IMG/VR virus record: IMGVR_UViG_3300009103_000003
Span: 32,001-96,000 of that record
DNA length: 64,000 bases
Reading direction: 5' to 3' (one strand)
Origin: a virus
Each line of letters opens with the position of its first letter. The first letter of the stretch is position 1. The notes below the pieces were generated by a model. That model had not been told where the DNA came from. It made no database searches and worked only from the letters and a program-made list of their open reading frames with translations. The position numbers were made by a program, and so were the translations under genes. Below are positions 53,244 through 59,127 of this stretch, piece after piece.

Positions 53244-53590
53244 TGACGGGTGGTAATGTTTTTAATGGCGGTATGCCGATATCTGGCTTTGAGCTTGTCA
53301 CGTTCACGGAAGCGAAAACGCCAGTCATGGGTGTTCGTGCCGAATATTACCAATATGAAAATGGGGTCAAGTTCCATTTTTGGGGTGACCCTGAGTTTCC
53401 CGAAACATTTGAGACCAGCCTCATGGAGGCCTTCGCCGCTTTTCCTAAAGAAAACATTATCGTTGAATACGTGCCCGAGGTGGATAGCTGGTATGGCGAA
53501 GTAAAAAATGTAAACACACTAACTTCGTCGCTCATTGAGCGAATTGTTAGCAAAATAGCGACGGCGGTAGAGAACAATGGCAAAGAATGA
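53243..53590 (+). CDS. Hypothetical protein
   Basis: TAATG-coupled ORF, 115 aa. Confidence 0.65.
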   Translation: MTGGNVFNGGMPISGFELVTFTEAKTPVMGVRAEYYQYENGVKFHFWGDPEFPETFETSLMEAFAAFPKENIIVEYVPEVDSWYGEVKNVNTLTSSLIERIVSKIATAVENNGKE

Positions 53591-55391
53591 AAAACAATCT
53601 TATACGGGCACCCTTGCCAAAGTAGCTCCCGCCTTCGGTCTGAAGGCCATTCTTGGTGATTTACCCAAAGCATCTCTTGAGCACGCTACAGAAGCGAAGC
53701 TTCGCGGAAATAAGGCCAAACTAAAAGACCTCTTGGTTCAGGGCATGAAGGGTCGTGGCGTGGGCAGGGCCACCGGCGCAGCAGTTGGGATTGCAACAGC
53801 CCCTCTTTTCTTGAAGGGCCTGGATTTCGTTAGCTCTAAAGACAAGAAAAAACAGCGACTCGGACTCGCCCTACTGGGCTCTACCGCTGCTGCTTACCAA
53901 GGGCAGAAAGGCTTCATTGAAGGTTACAGGTCTGCCAAGGCAGGCGGAACACCTAGCAAGCTACTGGCAGCAAGACAGGGTGCTATTATTGGGGGGACAC
54001 GCATTGCGTATAAAACCCCCTCAGCGATCCTGCTTGGCCTAAGCATTGCGCAGGGAAGGAAGAAGAGTAAGAGTGGTGGCGGGCCGTTAGCTAAGTATAT
54101 CACCCCAGCCCTATCCGGTGCTGCCATCGGCGCTTTGTCCCGTGGCGCAGAAAACATCGCTGTTCAGAAAGGCATGGGTGGAGCAAAACTCACCTCACAA
54201 GTATTTAAGAAAGCATTACCAGCGGCTGGTGGTGGAGCAGTAGGCGGTCTTGTTGGAGGGGTCGTCTTATCCGCAGCAGTCGATGGTGCTATGAAAGCCT
54301 TGAAAAGCGGGAAAGAGAAGAAGGCCGCAGCGGTTACGGGAACAGCGCTTGGTGTAAAGGGCTTGGCCAGCTTGCTCGGTATTCATGGAGCCACAAAGGG
54401 GGCTATGGGGTACGGCGGCGCTGGGCGTTTGACTGCGAAAATTCCTTGGCTTGGTAAGCGGGTGCAGGGGGGTATGCAAAACCTCAAGACTCGCCAGCTT
54501 GCCATTGGGATCAGAGAAGGACTCGCAGGGAGAACAAACGCAGGGTTCCGCGCAAATGTCGGCCTGGGGATGACTATTCCGGAGCTTAAGTTCAACCGAG
54601 AGGTTGGGATAAAGCTTGGACAACTTCTTCGAGGTGTTCCTCCAGAGTTTAGGCCGAAGGCGTTAGCATTTGTTCAAAAGCAAATTACCCCAATAATGAA
54701 GAAAACCAAGGGCGGGGACCCTGTCCCAGTATTCAACCAATTGGGAAAAGCAATTGAGCAGGCAACGGGTAAGGACCCGCTCTTCAAGAGGACTGGCTTG
54801 GCTGGGGCATGGAATTCCGTGATGCACGGGGGACGTGGGGCGTACACCCAAAAGGGTCACGCAGTCCGCAGATTACCTAAAGCGTTAGCACAAGATCCAA
54901 AAAGCAAGGGTCTCGCTGGAGACTTAGTTCTGAGTGGTGGCGGTGTTGGGGGGATGGCCGCTTTACTGTCTGGCGCTGTTCCAGGGGCAGCGGTTATACC
55001 TGCAACAGTCATGGCGTCTCATGCAGCAATGAGCGGATTAAAAGGGTTGGCTGTCCGCACTAAAGCAATTCAGAACAAGGCTGGCGAGTCTGCTGCCCAA
55101 GGTATTCGAGAAGCATTCTTGCCTGGGATGAGGAAGGGCCTCGGGACGAAAACTATGGAGAAGGTGCTAGATTACGGGGTCTCGCCTGCGTCCCGCGATT
55201 TCGGGAAAATGATTGGTGCCCTCGCCAGAAGAGGCGCGGAGACAGGACGCCAAGCTTTCTACGGCGGTGCGCAAGGAAAACTCAACAGAGTGTTTTCTCC
55301 GAAGAGACTATCATTTTCTGACGCTGCAACTATGCCGATGCTGGCTGGTGCAGGGGCGGCAGGCCTATACAAAGCTAATAGAGAGCGCTAA
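53577..55391 (+). CDS. Basic Gly/Ala-rich protein with glycine-zipper hydrophobic segments (putative internal virion/ejection protein)
   Basis: Multiple GxxxG hydrophobic stretches (GRATGAAVGIA, LSGAAIGAL, GGGAVGGLVGGVVL, GGVGGMAALLSG). Very Lys/Arg-rich. Confidence 0.55.
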   Translation: MAKNEKQSYTGTLAKVAPAFGLKAILGDLPKASLEHATEAKLRGNKAKLKDLLVQGMKGRGVGRATGAAVGIATAPLFLKGLDFVSSKDKKKQRLGLALLGSTAAAYQGQKGFIEGYRSAKAGGTPSKLLAARQGAIIGGTRIAYKTPSAILLGLSIAQGRKKSKSGGGPLAKYITPALSGAAIGALSRGAENIAVQKGMGGAKLTSQVFKKALPAAGGGAVGGLVGGVVLSAAVDGAMKALKSGKEKKAAAVTGTALGVKGLASLLGIHGATKGAMGYGGAGRLTAKIPWLGKRVQGGMQNLKTRQLAIGIREGLAGRTNAGFRANVGLGMTIPELKFNREVGIKLGQLLRGVPPEFRPKALAFVQKQITPIMKKTKGGDPVPVFNQLGKAIEQATGKDPLFKRTGLAGAWNSVMHGGRGAYTQKGHAVRRLPKALAQDPKSKGLAGDLVLSGGGVGGMAALLSGAVPGAAVIPATVMASHAAMSGLKGLAVRTKAIQNKAGESAAQGIREAFLPGMRKGLGTKTMEKVLDYGVSPASRDFGKMIGALARRGAETGRQAFYGGAQGKLNRVFSPKRLSFSDAATMPMLAGAGAAGLYKANRER

Positions 55392-55393
55392 TC

Positions 55394-57163
55394 ATGAGTC
55401 TGGGCGATTACTTAACCAAATCTGCGGAAGAAGCTCCCCCCAAGCATGGGACAGGGATTCCTTCGCTCAAAGAATGGTTCAAGCCCTACGATCATCAAGC
55501 AAGCGCAATTGACCGCCTGTTCGCTAACAAAGGGAAGATGATTCTCGCCCATGAGATGGGTACCGGTAAAACCGTTACCAGTATCTATGGGTTTGAGAAA
55601 ATGAAGCATGAAGGTAAGGCGAAAAAAGCTCTTGTCATTGTGCCTTCCGGTCTTCGAGACAACTTCGCCAAAAACGGTATTGAGAAGTTCACCAATAGTA
55701 CTTGGCAGGCGATTGGTTCTTCCTCTGAGAAGTCTAAGAAGGCTGGGTATATCAGGCCTGGGGAAGAGTCCGACAAAGATTACACAGTAATAAGCTATGC
55801 GATGTTTCGGCGTGATCCAATTGGGTACATGAAGCGAACAGGCGCAGATACGATTATCGCGGACGAGTTCCACAAGACTAGGAATGAACGGGCTAGCACA
55901 TACCAAGCCCTGGCCTCTGCTCGTGTGTTGGCTACAAACTTCATGGGGCTGACCGCCTCGATGATTAATAATAATCCTTCGGAGTTGGCGACCCTGCTTA
56001 CCTTATCGGAGGGGAGGCGGGACCTAACACCAAGGCAATTTAAGCGCCGATATACCCAAACGATTGGATTCACCAAAGGATTTAATGACGGTCGTAAAAA
56101 GATCGTTGGGATGAAAAATGTTGATGAGCTACGGGAGCGGACAGGGACAAAAGTAGACTACGTCGAAACCAAGGACTTGAAAGGCAAGACGATGCCTAAA
56201 AAAGATATTGAGACAGTCCCTGTCCCAATGTCTAAGGAACAGTATCGACTGTATCAACTGTCACTAAACAAGCTCGGCCCAGTTAAGAAGTATATAACCA
56301 AGAAAGACCCAAACATCACTGTGCGAGAAGCCAAGATGATTTTTGGGCAGATTTCACAAGCCCGACAAGTCGCTAACTCTCTCCAAACTGGGCGAAGTGA
56401 TGTGACCCTTGCCGAGTCATCCAGAAGAACTCCGAAGGTGAACAGGCTCCTAAACGACACAGAAAAACACTTGGCAGATAAGTCAGACAACAAGGTTGTT
56501 TTATATTCGAACCTTGTTCGTGGTGGGGTGGATGTTCTATCTGCCGGGTTAAAAGAACGAGGAATCCCCCACTCTGTATTCGTTGGTAAAGGCACAGAGG
56601 TGGGTGGTAATAAGGTTACAGCCGTCTCCAGACAGGCTGGAGTTCAGGAGTATAAGGCCGGGAAAAAGCGGGTAATCGTCATCAGTGGTGCTGGGGCTGA
56701 GGGGCTCGATCTTAAGAACTCAACGGCATTTTTCTCTTTAGATGGGCACTTCAATCCACAACGCGTTTTACAAGCAGAGGGTAGGGCTAGAAGACTTGGT
56801 GGGCAAAAACATCGCGCATTAGAGGACCGCATTGTGAATGTAAGGCGCTACCAGAGTGTCGCGCCAGACAGTGCAAAGCCTGGGTTTATTGGTCGAGTGT
56901 TTGGGAAGACCACCCCAAGAACAACAGATCAATGGATGGATAGCGTTGCTAGCCGGAAGTACCAGCAGCAAGAGCAATTCTATAAAGCCTATAAGCAGAA
57001 AAAGCATCTGTATAAATACACAGACCAAAGCGGGAAAACTAGATATGTCTACGCCAAAAAAACCAAACAAAAATCCCCTGGACTCTTTTCTCGGATCTTC
57101 TCTAGAAAGCGAACTCCTGAAGCTAGCCCAATCCAAGCCCCCAAACCTACGACTGTCGGATAG
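55394..57163 (+). CDS. SNF2-family ATPase/helicase
   Basis: YDHQASAI, AHEMGTGKT, VIVPSGL, IIADEFH, LTAS, KVVLYS, SGAGAEGLDL, FNP...QAEGRARRLG. Confidence 0.93.
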   Translation: MSLGDYLTKSAEEAPPKHGTGIPSLKEWFKPYDHQASAIDRLFANKGKMILAHEMGTGKTVTSIYGFEKMKHEGKAKKALVIVPSGLRDNFAKNGIEKFTNSTWQAIGSSSEKSKKAGYIRPGEESDKDYTVISYAMFRRDPIGYMKRTGADTIIADEFHKTRNERASTYQALASARVLATNFMGLTASMINNNPSELATLLTLSEGRRDLTPRQFKRRYTQTIGFTKGFNDGRKKIVGMKNVDELRERTGTKVDYVETKDLKGKTMPKKDIETVPVPMSKEQYRLYQLSLNKLGPVKKYITKKDPNITVREAKMIFGQISQARQVANSLQTGRSDVTLAESSRRTPKVNRLLNDTEKHLADKSDNKVVLYSNLVRGGVDVLSAGLKERGIPHSVFVGKGTEVGGNKVTAVSRQAGVQEYKAGKKRVIVISGAGAEGLDLKNSTAFFSLDGHFNPQRVLQAEGRARRLGGQKHRALEDRIVNVRRYQSVAPDSAKPGFIGRVFGKTTPRTTDQWMDSVASRKYQQQEQFYKAYKQKKHLYKYTDQSGKTRYVYAKKTKQKSPGLFSRIFSRKRTPEASPIQAPKPTTVG

Positions 57164-57305
57164 CAACGTAAAATGTGACGGGTGCAGTAGCTTTGCTTAC
57201 AAATCTGGGAGAAGCTGGCGGGGTGATGGTGATTGCTCTAAATACGGCGGCTCTCCTGTCCGGGCAGACTTCGTATGCGATGACTTTGAACCGGTGCAGG
57301 AGTAG
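57045..57305 (+). CDS. Small Cys4 metal-binding protein overlapping the SNF2 3' end
   Basis: ATG at 57045 with GGGA upstream. LESELLKLAQ...KCDGC...GDCSKY...VCDDF. The stop lies 2 nt before the next gene. Confidence 0.6.
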   Translation: MSTPKKPNKNPLDSFLGSSLESELLKLAQSKPPNLRLSDSNVKCDGCSSFAYKSGRSWRGDGDCSKYGGSPVRADFVCDDFEPVQE

Positions 57306-57307
57306 TT

Positions 57308-58570
57308 ATGGATTTGCCTCTCATATTAACCAACTATAGAGCGGAGCTAGAAAAGACCGCCGCCACAGCAGCCCTCAAAGCTATTCGTGCGCTGGTTAAT
57401 GCGGGGAAGATAGGTAAGGCTGAAGCTTTGGCGACAAACCTCATCTCCAAGGGGGCGCTCAAAACATCGAAACAGGGCTCACAACTTAGATTCCTAGGGT
57501 CTGGTAGCGAGGGACCTGCGCACCTAGTCATTGGCGCTAAAGACGCACCAAGCAAGGTACTTGTACGAAAAATGCTAGACCCGAGAGGGGCCATCTTCAG
57601 TAAAGAACAGGCTGCTACCAAGTTCAACACCCTACGCCGCTTGAGAGCTAATCCGGCTGCTGATGGCGGACATAAACTATCCAAAGGCAGCGACTCCTTT
57701 GCGAAGCTGGTGAGTAATAAGCTCCACAAAACCCCAACAGGGGGGAGGTACTATCATTCAGAGTATGTGCCTGGGAAAGACCTTTACCAGACTGCGATGC
57801 AAGCGCGGGGGCTACCAAAAGCCACAAAGGCTGGGCTTCCAGGGCTTCATGATGCCTCTGTTTTGGCCGGTAAATCTCATCTAGGAAAGCGCCCCGGCTC
57901 TACGATCAAAGACGCGCTTAAAGGAAGAGCGTCTAGAACTAACCGAGCCCTAGAACAATCCAACGCAACAAACATCATGGTGACCCCTTCCGGGAAACCC
58001 AAGATTGTGGATTTTTATGTCTCCCCCAAAGACAGTTTTCATGCCCAATCTGCCGTTAGAGCCTCGACCAGTACTCGCACAGTTAAGGGAGGGGGGAAAG
58101 CGCCCTCCCCAGCCCTGGTTAAAAAACCGAGCCCCGGAATTCTTGCTCGTCACAGAGCAGCGGCGTGGCGTGACCGCGTCCCAGGCGCAAACACGACCGT
58201 GGCAGATGTCCCCGCAGCAGGAGGCCTCCGCAGTGCTGATACAGTCAACACCTTGAGAGGGCTTGGTCCCGGCTCCCCCAGAGCAGGAGCCACAACCAAG
58301 GGCCGGTGGACAGGAAAGCAACCTCAGGGGTCAGGACCACCAAGGTCAGCAGAATATGAAAAGATGATGCTTGACGAGGTTGGTTCTCGCAACCAAAGGA
58401 TGCTTAGGGCCATGCATAACAGGGTCGCAACAGGGGCCACCAACCCTGCGAGCCCTAAAGCCCTGTCTGGAGTCGCCTTCCCCCCGATAAATCCCTTCGG
58501 GGCGACAGTTCCGAAGGGGCTTCCATTTGCCAAGACACAACCCGCACGTACCCCCCTAAGGAGTCGTTAG
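57308..58570 (+). CDS. Protein-kinase-like (Ser/Thr or atypical) protein with a basic low-complexity tail
   Basis: Gly-loop FLGSGSEGPAHL, VLVRK, SEYVPGKDL, LHD...ATNIMV and GKPKIVDF occur in kinase order. Confidence 0.6.
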   Translation: MDLPLILTNYRAELEKTAATAALKAIRALVNAGKIGKAEALATNLISKGALKTSKQGSQLRFLGSGSEGPAHLVIGAKDAPSKVLVRKMLDPRGAIFSKEQAATKFNTLRRLRANPAADGGHKLSKGSDSFAKLVSNKLHKTPTGGRYYHSEYVPGKDLYQTAMQARGLPKATKAGLPGLHDASVLAGKSHLGKRPGSTIKDALKGRASRTNRALEQSNATNIMVTPSGKPKIVDFYVSPKDSFHAQSAVRASTSTRTVKGGGKAPSPALVKKPSPGILARHRAAAWRDRVPGANTTVADVPAAGGLRSADTVNTLRGLGPGSPRAGATTKGRWTGKQPQGSGPPRSAEYEKMMLDEVGSRNQRMLRAMHNRVATGATNPASPKALSGVAFPPINPFGATVPKGLPFAKTQPARTPLRSR

Positions 58571-58617
58571 ATGAAGACACGACTTGTGGCTAAGAAAAAT
58601 GGGAGGCTAAAAGCCTC

Positions 58618-58854
58618 TCACTCTTCCAGGCCCGCAGCTTCACGGACCTTGGCAGGGATTCTGCATGTGACGTCTTTGGGATATCTTTCTATAAAAGCTA
58701 GGGCCTCTGGCTTCGTTGGGGTGCCCATGAAACAGCGAATACTGAGCCATTCATTGAGCTTATCATCTACGGGCAAGCCATCATCGAATAGAGCCAAAAG
58801 CTTCTCAGGTATCGGGGTAATTTCCATCCCTTCTTTTGAGTTTGGAATATACAT
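58618..58854 (-). CDS. Hypothetical protein (antisense island)
   Basis: GGAGG SD before the ATG; protein-like composition. Confidence 0.6.
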   Translation of the reverse strand: MYIPNSKEGMEITPIPEKLLALFDDGLPVDDKLNEWLSIRCFMGTPTKPEALAFIERYPKDVTCRIPAKVREAAGLEE

Positions 58855-58887
58855 AGTTAGCCTCCTATCATCCTTCTTATGCCAGAT

Positions 58888-59127
58888 TCAGTCCCGTCTC
58901 TTGCCATACCAGATTGTTATTTTCCCGTATTTCGCGTTAATACGTACTCGGCCCTTGGGGCCTAAGGCATCTCTAAGGAAGGCGTCTAGTAATTTTTTAG
59001 CTTGTGGGTCTAGTGGGGCCCACACGGTAAGCGTGTAGGTTTTCCCATGACTCTCGTACGACAACAGATCGTTACCGATAGCTCTGGAAAGTGAGGCAAT
59101 AACTCTTTTGAAGGCTACGTCATCCAT
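58888..59127 (-). CDS. Hypothetical protein (antisense island)
   Basis: Protein-like 79-aa ORF. No SD; its start shares a CATG with a possible terminase start. Confidence 0.5.
   Translation of the reverse strand: MDDVAFKRVIASLSRAIGNDLLSYESHGKTYTLTVWAPLDPQAKKLLDAFLRDALGPKGRVRINAKYGKITIWYGKRRD

Follow-up and report, generated by a model that had tools for sequence, protein, structure and literature searches.

Iyer et al. (2017) predicted that 'polyvalent proteins' are injected into the host together with phage or plasmid DNA and described, in this context, monophyletic kinase domains that have lost the entire C-terminal subdomain while keeping the active-site residues intact. These domains are marked by a glutamate N-terminal to strand 2, a glutamine that is conserved in the final N-lobe strand and an insertion separating conserved phosphotransfer residues (His and Asp), and the kinase of phage T7 was cited as their functional precedent (PMC5512222). 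No experimental work on this family (Kinase-PolyVal, PF18762) was found in the literature. Here, we describe a putative kinase gene of an uncultured phage that is located in a 64,000-nucleotide (nt) stretch of DNA (hereafter, the window), which corresponds to bases 32001-96000 of the virus record IMGVR_UViG_3300009103_000003, a complete genome of 181,199 bp with direct terminal repeats. The best explanation of the findings reported below is that the product of this gene belongs, as a stand-alone protein, to a large family of minimal protein-kinase-like enzymes that is confined to phages and has no name; that this enzyme is, in addition, active, packaged in the phage head and ejected with the DNA appears probable, at roughly 55%. 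A C-lobe-less, injected phage kinase is, as a kind, what was predicted in 2017, and the family itself is missed by the current libraries.

Phage enzymes that are packaged and ejected into the host include the ADP-ribosyltransferase Alt of phage T4, the helicase-methylase DarB of phage P1 and the virion RNA polymerases of phages N4 and phiKZ. For these enzymes, packaging has been demonstrated experimentally, and none of them is a protein kinase, whereas the packaging of the kinase described here is predicted. A capsid-borne enzyme could act before the transcription of any phage gene; to our knowledge, this advantage of early timing is established for ADP-ribosyltransferases and RNA polymerases but, for kinases, has been predicted and never shown. 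Phage kinases are emerging as broad anti-defense weapons, the T7 kinase (gp0.7, T7K) being an example, and the DNA-binding C-terminal part of T7K aims the kinase at nucleic acid-binding host proteins and defense systems (PMC13645617). If the fullest version of the interpretation offered here is correct, the window protein would become the first demonstrated example of a protein kinase that a bacteriophage particle delivers, and host proteins, such as DNA-bound defense proteins, would be phosphorylated in the first seconds of infection.

A protein-kinase-like fold

The open reading frame (ORF) singled out in the preliminary description of this locus is real: it starts with an ATG codon, with an AGGAG box 7-11 nt upstream, and the motifs listed there all occur, and in the order given, namely ELEKTAA (residue 13), GSGSEG (64), VLVRK (84), SEYVPG (151), LHD (180), TNIMV (221) and KIVDF (232). 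By itself, the window protein matches no family in Pfam (E<=0.1), PHROGs or NCBIfam; in particular, the Pkinase profile PF00069 retrieves neither this protein at E<=0.1 nor 44 of its relatives at E<=1. The relationship becomes apparent at the level of family profiles. A profile of four sequences retrieved only PknA from the PDB, with a non-significant E-value of 0.62, and significance was reached only with a profile of 44 family sequences, which was used for both the PDB search and structure modeling and gave PknA (E 2.6e-6), StkP (4e-4) and PknB (2e-3), all Hanks-type kinases. The PknA alignment pairs the family hinge Y-x-x-x-E-Y-V-P-G with YLVMELVNG, and the family catalytic consensus l-g-D-l-i-g-n-p-g-N-v-v-v-t-p-s-G-k-p-K-v-i-D-f with the PknA stretch that extends from the catalytic loop to DFG; the hinge, the HRD Asp, the Asn and the DFG Asp of PknA are aligned to E152, D202, N222 and D235, respectively.

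Structure prediction leads to the same fold. The AlphaFold2 model built from the 44-sequence profile has a mean predicted local distance difference test score (pLDDT) of 78.5 and a predicted template modeling score of 0.72, and its comparison with the PDB using Foldseek yields at least 500 hits at E<=1e-3, all of them protein kinases. A VIA-align structural search retrieves 162 chains at Z>=8, of which the first 50 are without exception kinases (Z 9.2-11.9); their alignments cover residues ~52-245 of the model, the best match being PknE (Z 11.9, root mean square deviation 2.6 A over 139 residues, model positions 55-236). Likewise, 10 of the 10 structure clusters nearest to the ESM Atlas model of the window protein carry Pkinase, and in feature space, OspG clusters rank among the closest of the named Atlas clusters (score 0.92). 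Thus, the check proposed in the preliminary description, profile searches and structure prediction against kinases, recovers a protein-kinase-like fold, with the model matching kinases only, and this fold assignment is strongly supported by the profile, the predicted model and the fold searches together. The closest matches in both sequence and structure are the Hanks-type kinases PknA, PknB, PknE and StkP, with PknA aligning from the hinge to DFG. Unlike the window protein, these kinases possess a full C-lobe, an activation loop, the HRD His, the alphaC Glu and a contiguous D-x4-N motif, and they are neither basic nor viral.

Active site and the interrupted catalytic loop

In an alignment of 123 relatives, from which all conservation counts given here are derived, E68, D202, N222 and D235 are present in every sequence, and G229, K88 and G66 are present in 120, 119 and 118 sequences, respectively. 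Lying between strands 58-65 and 70-75, E68 is the counterpart of the glutamate that precedes strand 2 in the Kinase-PolyVal domains. The glutamine of those domains is not shared: the strand 147-152 ends in E152, and this position is occupied by E in 110 of the relatives and by Q in only three. From the PknA alignment and the predicted secondary structure, we infer that K88, D202, N222 and D235 are brought together at a single ATP site.

The preliminary description had taken the aspartate of LHD (D182) for the catalytic one. This assignment has to be rejected: D182 is not conserved, and the position varies even among the three closest homologs, which read LWK, IYK and ISA. We take D202 (in TIKD) as the equivalent of the HRD Asp and the catalytic base, because this residue is invariant and is aligned with the HRD Asp of PknA; furthermore, D202 follows a short strand (198-201), as the HRD Asp of kinases follows beta6. 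An insertion in the catalytic loop does exist, as originally proposed, but it consists of 15 rather than ~35 residues, given that N222 follows D202 by 20 positions instead of the canonical 5. The loop H-R-D-x4-N is accordingly not contiguous in the window protein, in which K201, not His, precedes D202, and N219 occupies the place of the His or Arg of the canonical relatives (D-[LIV]-[HR]-x-x-N). The insert described for the phosphotransfer loop of Kinase-PolyVal domains may be shared in part: in the window clade, an insert of 15 residues lies between D202 and the His-equivalent position, whereas 79 of the 123 relatives have none.

Across the family, the spacing between the catalytic Asp and Asn is 5 in 79 sequences (D-[LIV]-[HR]-x-x-N), 7 in 29 sequences (D-x-x-G-N-x-G-N) and 12-26 in 12 sequences. 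On a tree inferred with the loop columns excluded, long inserts require at least four origins. Because the catalytic residues were kept in each case, the loop can be described as an insertion hot-spot that spares these residues: a normally contiguous catalytic loop tolerates inserts of up to 21 residues with every catalytic residue in place.

The insertion of the window protein contains a second acidic residue, E216, six positions before N222. As an alternative catalytic acid at near-canonical spacing, E216 appears less likely than D202, because it is replaced by Gln in the homolog P0002 and has no counterpart in P0005, while D202 is invariant; in P0001, the counterpart is Asp, and in P0003, an Asp shifted by one position. 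In P0003 (L003:8726-10204), residues ~205-235 read L-G-D...(18 residues)...L-G-D-W-A-G-N-P-E-N, a pattern that resembles a local duplication of the Asp-bearing segment and gives a hint of how the loop insertion of this clade arose.

As stated in the preliminary description, the alphaC Glu is not obvious. The window protein has T104 at the likeliest position, and the respective alignment column contains R in 63, E in 26, N in 9 and D in 8 sequences, with other residues in the rest; the helix 99-113 has no conserved Glu, and K105 is conserved instead. Within the window clade, the N-lobe is the most conserved region of the protein (54-80% identity), whereas residues 157-221, which include D202 and the loop insertion, are only 14-49% identical.

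These irregularities bear on the possibility, already raised in the preliminary description, that the protein is a pseudokinase, that is, a DNA-binding internal head or scaffold protein in which the fold was kept and catalysis was lost in the window clade. Such a loss would fit the 15-residue insertion in a normally contiguous loop, the threonine at the likeliest alphaC position and the missing HRD His, along with the hypervariability and poor modeling of residues 157-221 and the highly basic, partly disordered character of the protein. However, D202, N222, D235, E68 and K88 are kept in the window protein and in every member of its clade, at overall identities of 33-62%, and the loop insertions arose at least four times without the loss of any of these residues, which argues that the insertion is tolerated rather than a symptom of decay. 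Because the active-site residues stay invariant despite fast divergence, across clades that share only ~25-35% identity, an active enzyme is favored over a pseudokinase, and we regard the latter as quite improbable. Judging by this pattern of conservation, the window protein is likely to be a catalytically competent Mg-ATP phosphotransferase.

Loss of the C-lobe and family-specific terminal modules

Most of the structural alignments with kinases end at residue ~236-248 of the model, a minority reach ~287-325 and one extends to 398. The sequence after D235 contains no APE motif and forms family-specific helices instead. Because most of the structural matches stop just after D235, the activation segment and the helices alphaF-alphaI appear to be absent, and the canonical C-lobe is missing, as the preliminary description had it. 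The accompanying claim that the C-lobe is replaced by a basic Pro/Gly tail holds for residues ~326-420, which are largely disordered, but not for residues ~241-325, where helices 241-256, 276-290 and 312-317 are conserved (pLDDT 87-95 over residues 271-320). These elements end in LRGLGPGSPR, and many relatives terminate exactly at an LRGL(GPGSR) motif. The basic tail that follows in the window protein is disordered except for a predicted helix (348-373, pLDDT ~80), and the pLDDT falls below 50 only from residue ~375 on.

As these comparisons show, the kinase portion of the protein comprises the N-lobe and, of the C-lobe, only the part with the catalytic loop and DFG. The protein resembles Kinase-PolyVal in the loss of the C-terminal kinase subdomain combined with the retention of the ATP-binding and phosphotransfer residues, and it illustrates, as a compact (~250-residue) case from nature, the extent to which a kinase can be pared down. 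A comparable reduction is found in the bacterial effectors NleH1/2 and OspG (4lrj, 4q5h; PF22303), kinases of ~160-200 residues without an activation segment and without the C-lobe helices that bind the substrate. VIA-align covers both almost fully (NleH1, Z 9.4, 139 of 160 residues; OspG, Z 9.3, 148 of 169 residues). The likeness is at the level of the fold only, as PF22303 has no Pfam match in the window protein or in 44 relatives. NleH and OspG are delivered as proteins into another cell, which parallels the delivery proposed here for the window kinase. Unlike the latter, they are directed by bacteria against eukaryotic cells through a secretion system, have a contiguous catalytic loop and are not strongly basic.

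T7K (PF27024) is, like the window protein, a phage enzyme with the kinase fold and an atypical DFG region, and its DNA-binding C-terminal part can be compared with the basic C-terminus of the window protein. The differences are that T7K is made early from injected DNA and has a fuller kinase domain along with a shut-off domain; T7K is not known to be packaged. No sequence match links the window protein to the T7K family (PF27024; PHROG kinase families), and in structure it resembles a T7K-like phage protein only weakly (E 2.7e-3, probability 0.6).

An unnamed family of kinase-like phage proteins

Among 5.8 billion proteins, the window protein has three close homologs, with 62, 47 and 33% identity. 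An exhaustive profile search increases the family to 144 representatives of clusters defined at 50% identity, detected at E<=1e-3, of which 65 are found at E<=1e-10. All members come from metagenomes, as a phage-only family, and are unnamed or annotated as 'hypothetical'; most are 270-400 residues long. They are strongly basic, with a median isoelectric point (pI) of 10.3 and 98% of the members above 9.5. A tblastn search of 50,697 phage records with the window protein and two distant relatives gave no match, nor did a relative turn up when 185,579 prokaryotic species genomes were scanned with a pattern. The family is included in neither PHROGs nor Pfam: one of 44 relatives matches a PHROG 'kinase' at E 0.0076, single relatives give weak matches to the APH and ABC1 families of Pfam (E 0.03-0.1), and PF18762 does not match any of the 44 relatives at E<=1 and is missing from the list of Pfam matches of the fusion protein P0052. 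A family of ~144 clusters has thus been overlooked by Pfam, PHROGs and the collections of cultured phages.

Several relatives are fused to other domains. P0052 and P0115 combine an SNF2 helicase with the kinase, P0018 consists of an M78 peptidase, an InPase domain and the kinase, P0054 joins a 2H/LigT phosphoesterase to the kinase, and P0127 unites NUDIX and KTSC domains with the N-terminal half of the kinase. In P0052, the SNF2 part matches the SNF2 helicase of the window over its full length (E 3e-40), and residues 1100-1299 are a complete family kinase (hhalign probability 99.8%). Hence, elsewhere, the adjoining SNF2 and kinase genes of the window correspond to a single polypeptide with the same order of parts. 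A word-index search for longer fused homologs yielded nothing new. Fusions of this kind are a feature of polyvalent proteins, although the window protein itself stands alone. As a whole, the family differs from Kinase-PolyVal in that its members are mostly stand-alone proteins of 270-400 amino acids with their own three-helix N-terminal module and a C-terminal LRGLGPGS-type motif; furthermore, it is found in metagenomic phages, in some of them near the gene for a fused RNA polymerase, whereas Kinase-PolyVal was described from phages and prophages of Verrucomicrobia, Chlamydia and Bacteroidetes.

The features of the family also have implications for the substrate. The kinase fold might serve an ATPase or a small-molecule or nucleic-acid kinase, akin to RIO/Bud32 or to APH, choline kinase and Kdo kinase, that would act on DNA ends, nucleotides or a component of the cell envelope. 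Many relatives have a D-L-H-x-x-N loop, with the spacing and the His typical of APH/ChoK-type enzymes; in the VIA-align search, Rio1 and APH(2'') score Z 9.8 and 9.3, and the weak APH and ABC1 matches point in the same direction, as do the fusions to nucleotide and nucleic acid enzymes (InPase, NUDIX and 2H) and the missing C-lobe that binds protein substrates. The G-x-G-x-E-G loop of the family, which we take to resemble that of RIO/Bud32, can be added to this list. Nevertheless, a non-protein substrate seems improbable: Hanks-type protein kinases give the best matches in sequence and structure, other relatives have D-[IV]-R-x-x-N as in protein kinases, no small-molecule-binding subdomain is visible, and NleH and OspG, which also lack the C-lobe, are true protein kinases. 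From the sequence comparisons, the substrate class is most likely protein, with the D-L-H-x-x-N loops and the loss of the substrate-binding lobe leaving room for an ATPase or a non-protein substrate.

At the 3' end of a 129.5-kb contig from the European Nucleotide Archive (L017), a distant member of the family is encoded in a long, unannotated run of plus-strand genes. A weak AcrVA2-like Pfam match is recorded on a gene ~10 kb downstream of it.

Genomic neighborhood and proposed virion delivery

The kinase gene is the last one in a block of plus-strand genes and is separated by a hairpin and two small minus-strand genes from the TerL gene at 59108; a prohead protease (positions 95753-97438 of the genome) and a major head protein are encoded just downstream. 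The order SNF2, kinase, TerL is kept in three related contigs, where the kinase is 33-62% identical, compared with 76-82% for SNF2 and TerL. Such fast evolution of the kinase would fit a host-facing role. More distant relatives occur in similar surroundings: in three contigs (L012, L014 and L015), the kinase gene lies directly between the genes for the portal and the fused RNA polymerase, and in L011, the order is SNF2 helicase, a MuF-like protein (with a 'minor head protein and DNA pilot' domain) and the kinase. The fused RNA polymerase, encoded next to the portal gene in the window, is conserved in distant metagenomic phages (L015:7435-13653; L012:11642-20290). Like Kinase-PolyVal, the window kinase is phage-encoded, adjoins packaging and head genes and is predicted to be injected.

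By their RNA polymerase and TerL, the nearest cultured relatives of the window phage are Vibrio phages D181, D148 and D69 and Salmonella phage Arash (~29-31% identity). The window RNA polymerase is 31% identical to the RNA polymerase gene product of Arash, and the window SNF2 helicase matches Arash gp217 with E 8e-39. In mass spectrometry of Arash virions, the RNA polymerase subunits and the helicase gp217 (38 unique peptides) are among the most abundant proteins of the particle (PMC10585845). The RNA polymerase of Arash consists of separate virion proteins, as opposed to the single fused chain of the window phage. The SNF2 helicase and the RNA polymerase of the window are of the same type as the known packaged enzymes, and the kinase would resemble the latter in being loaded into the head, ejected and active before phage gene expression. 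The kinase is linked to SNF2 by both fusion and neighborhood and to the virion-type RNA polymerase by neighborhood only, which suggests that the three enzymes may form an early-infection kit.

The type of motif to which the N-terminal ELEKTAA of the kinase belongs recurs in other proteins of this phage. A motif of the form [LIVMFYT][ETVKLQ]-K-x-A-[ASEQ] is found within the first 45 residues of 14 of the 207 predicted proteins of the genome, compared with a mean of 1.6 and a maximum of 6 in 200 shuffles of the N-termini and with 1 of 157 proteins when an internal stretch is scanned. The proteins that carry it are encoded mostly in structural and head gene blocks (positions 38219-64000 of the window and 13-18 kb, 93-105 kb and 179-180 kb of the genome) and include five of the twelve most basic proteins of the genome. 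Applied unchanged to Arash, the motif picks three neighboring virion proteins, gp220, gp222 and gp223. In the kinase family, the Lys of the motif is present in 119 of the 123 relatives, at a median distance of 16 residues from the N-terminus, and in the P0052 fusion, the motif is located at the start of the kinase module. The motif is a candidate prohead-protease or capsid-targeting signal.

Taken together, the neighborhood, the fusions, the N-terminal motif, the basicity and, by analogy, the proteomics of the Arash homologs of the neighboring genes make virion delivery of the kinase plausible. Several findings weigh against the interpretation of the window protein as an active, head-packaged kinase. 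The family profile finds no kinase in Arash or in Vibrio phage D181, and a search of the complete 181-kb genome with PF18762 yields nothing at E<=10. The convergence of the active-site residues rests on alignment and secondary structure rather than on distances, there is no clear alphaC Glu and no His ahead of the catalytic Asp, the catalytic loop is split, and the insertion region is modeled at moderate confidence (pLDDT 57-79). The motif was defined after examples had been seen; moreover, the kinases of L011, L012 and L015 keep a similar LEK-x-AA motif although their neighbors lack the strict one, so that LEK-x-AA may be intrinsic to the family and not a tag for packaging.

Some of these points would equally fit an active minimal kinase that is not packaged but is made late or throughout infection and acts within the infected cell, in the manner of T7 gp0.7, on targets such as the RNA polymerase, the SNF2 helicase, the portal, the scaffold or host defense proteins. 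The evidence for the fold and the active site holds equally for such an enzyme, which would also be compatible with the absence of the kinase from the only relatives with virion proteomics and with the persistence of the N-terminal motif where neighbors lack it; the T7 kinase, with its DNA-binding C-terminal domain, is a non-packaged precedent (PMC13645617). What renders this alternative rather unlikely is the recurrence of the gene between the portal and virion-type RNA polymerase genes or after a MuF-like head protein, the resemblance of the fusions to polyvalent proteins, and the combination of extreme basicity with the shared N-terminal motif, which is typical of internal head proteins.

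Under the preferred interpretation, an active kinase packaged in the head, the enzyme would probably be a late product that is loaded into the prohead, as with the kinase domains of polyvalent proteins. Its N-terminal LEK-x-AA leader, common to other head proteins, may be cut by the prohead protease, and a net charge of ~+45 would hold the protein on the packaged DNA. Ejection would follow, together with the DNA, the fused beta-beta' RNA polymerase and the SNF2 helicase, and in the host, the enzyme would phosphorylate DNA-proximal host proteins, or phage proteins, before phage gene expression. The basic 15-residue insertion is predicted to loop out between the catalytic Asp and the [H/N]xxN segment and, along with the hypervariable stretch at the alphaD/alphaE position, probably shapes the choice of targets. 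The complete version of this scenario, in which the kinase is a genuine capsid-packaged protein ejected with the single-chain RNA polymerase and SNF2, the insertion and the hypervariable stretch set the targets, and LEK-x-AA is a loading or cleavage signal, is more tentative, possible rather than probable.

Layout of the locus

The features of the kinase gene and its surroundings are listed in Table 1.

Table 1. The kinase gene, its domains and motifs, and neighboring features (window coordinates; aa, amino acids)
Feature	Coordinates	Strand	Remarks
Portal gene, 670 aa	39880-41892	+	Homolog of Arash gp204 (E 3e-90); no Pfam or PHROG match
Fused single-chain beta-beta' RNA polymerase, 2091 aa	42330-48605	+	Followed by several unknown genes
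Portal-sized protein, 690 aa	50391-52463		Not a portal; carries FEKTAS
Basic Gly/Ala-rich protein	53577-55391	+	
SNF2 helicase	55394-57163	+	Upstream of kinase; homolog of Arash virion protein gp217; akin to SNF2 of P0052
Small Cys-rich ORF	56856-57305	+	Other frame, overlaps SNF2 3' end; ends 2 nt before kinase start
Kinase ORF, whole	57308-58570	+	420 aa + stop; pI 11.08; 69 K/R vs 24 D/E
Three-helix N-terminal module	57308-57457	+	Family-specific; helices 3-18, 21-31, 35-47; pLDDT 95-97 from residue 21
N-terminal motif ELEKTAA, residues 13-19	57344-57364	+	K16 in 119/123 relatives, A18 in 98/123
Kinase N-lobe	57458-57775	+	Strands 58-65, 70-75, 85-90, 147-152; helix alphaC 99-113; hinge EYVPG
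Gly-rich loop LGSGSEG	57494-57514	+	G64, G66; invariant E68 just N-terminal of strand 2
K88, beta3 ATP-binding Lys (VRK)	57569-57571	+	119/123 relatives
Hypervariable stretch, residues 157-201	57776-57910	+	alphaD/alphaE position; pLDDT 57-84
LHD (D182)	57845-57853	+	Non-conserved; inside hypervariable stretch
D202	57911-57913	+	123/123; aligned with PknA HRD Asp; directly after strand 198-201
Catalytic-loop insertion ALKGRASRTNRALEQS, residues 203-218	57914-57961	+	4 K/R; helix 212-217; pLDDT 64-79
N219-A-T-N222	57962-57973	+	N222, invariant catalytic-loop Asn
D235-F236, DFG-type metal-binding Asp	58010-58015	+	D235 in 123/123; followed by Y, not G
C-terminal elements replacing the C-lobe	58028-58282	+	Family-specific; helices 241-256, 276-290 (W287, R288), 312-317
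Basic tail, residues 326-420	58283-58567	+	Clade-specific; pI 11.7
Hairpin, GC-rich, terminator-like	58603-58617	.	Convergent junction of kinase gene and two small minus-strand genes
Small gene, 78 aa	58618-58854	-	Kept only in L002, weakly in L003
Small gene, 79 aa	58888-59127	-	Kept in all three related contigs (50-73% identity)

The hairpin downstream of the kinase gene is a terminator-like end of the transcription unit. Opposite the two small minus-strand genes, there is a plus-strand ORF of 155 amino acids (58571-59038) that is probably spurious.

The small Cys-rich ORF immediately upstream of the kinase gene contains no start codon after the SNF2 stop and is, accordingly, either an overlapping gene or an extension of the helicase by a frameshift. 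Four cysteines in a zinc-ribbon-like arrangement (CxxC...C...C) mark the ~45 residues at the C-terminus that are unique to it. The ORF is kept in the three related contigs (L002-L004) with 46-58% identity and, as an overlapping gene, carries ELLKLAQ near a possible ATG at ~57043.

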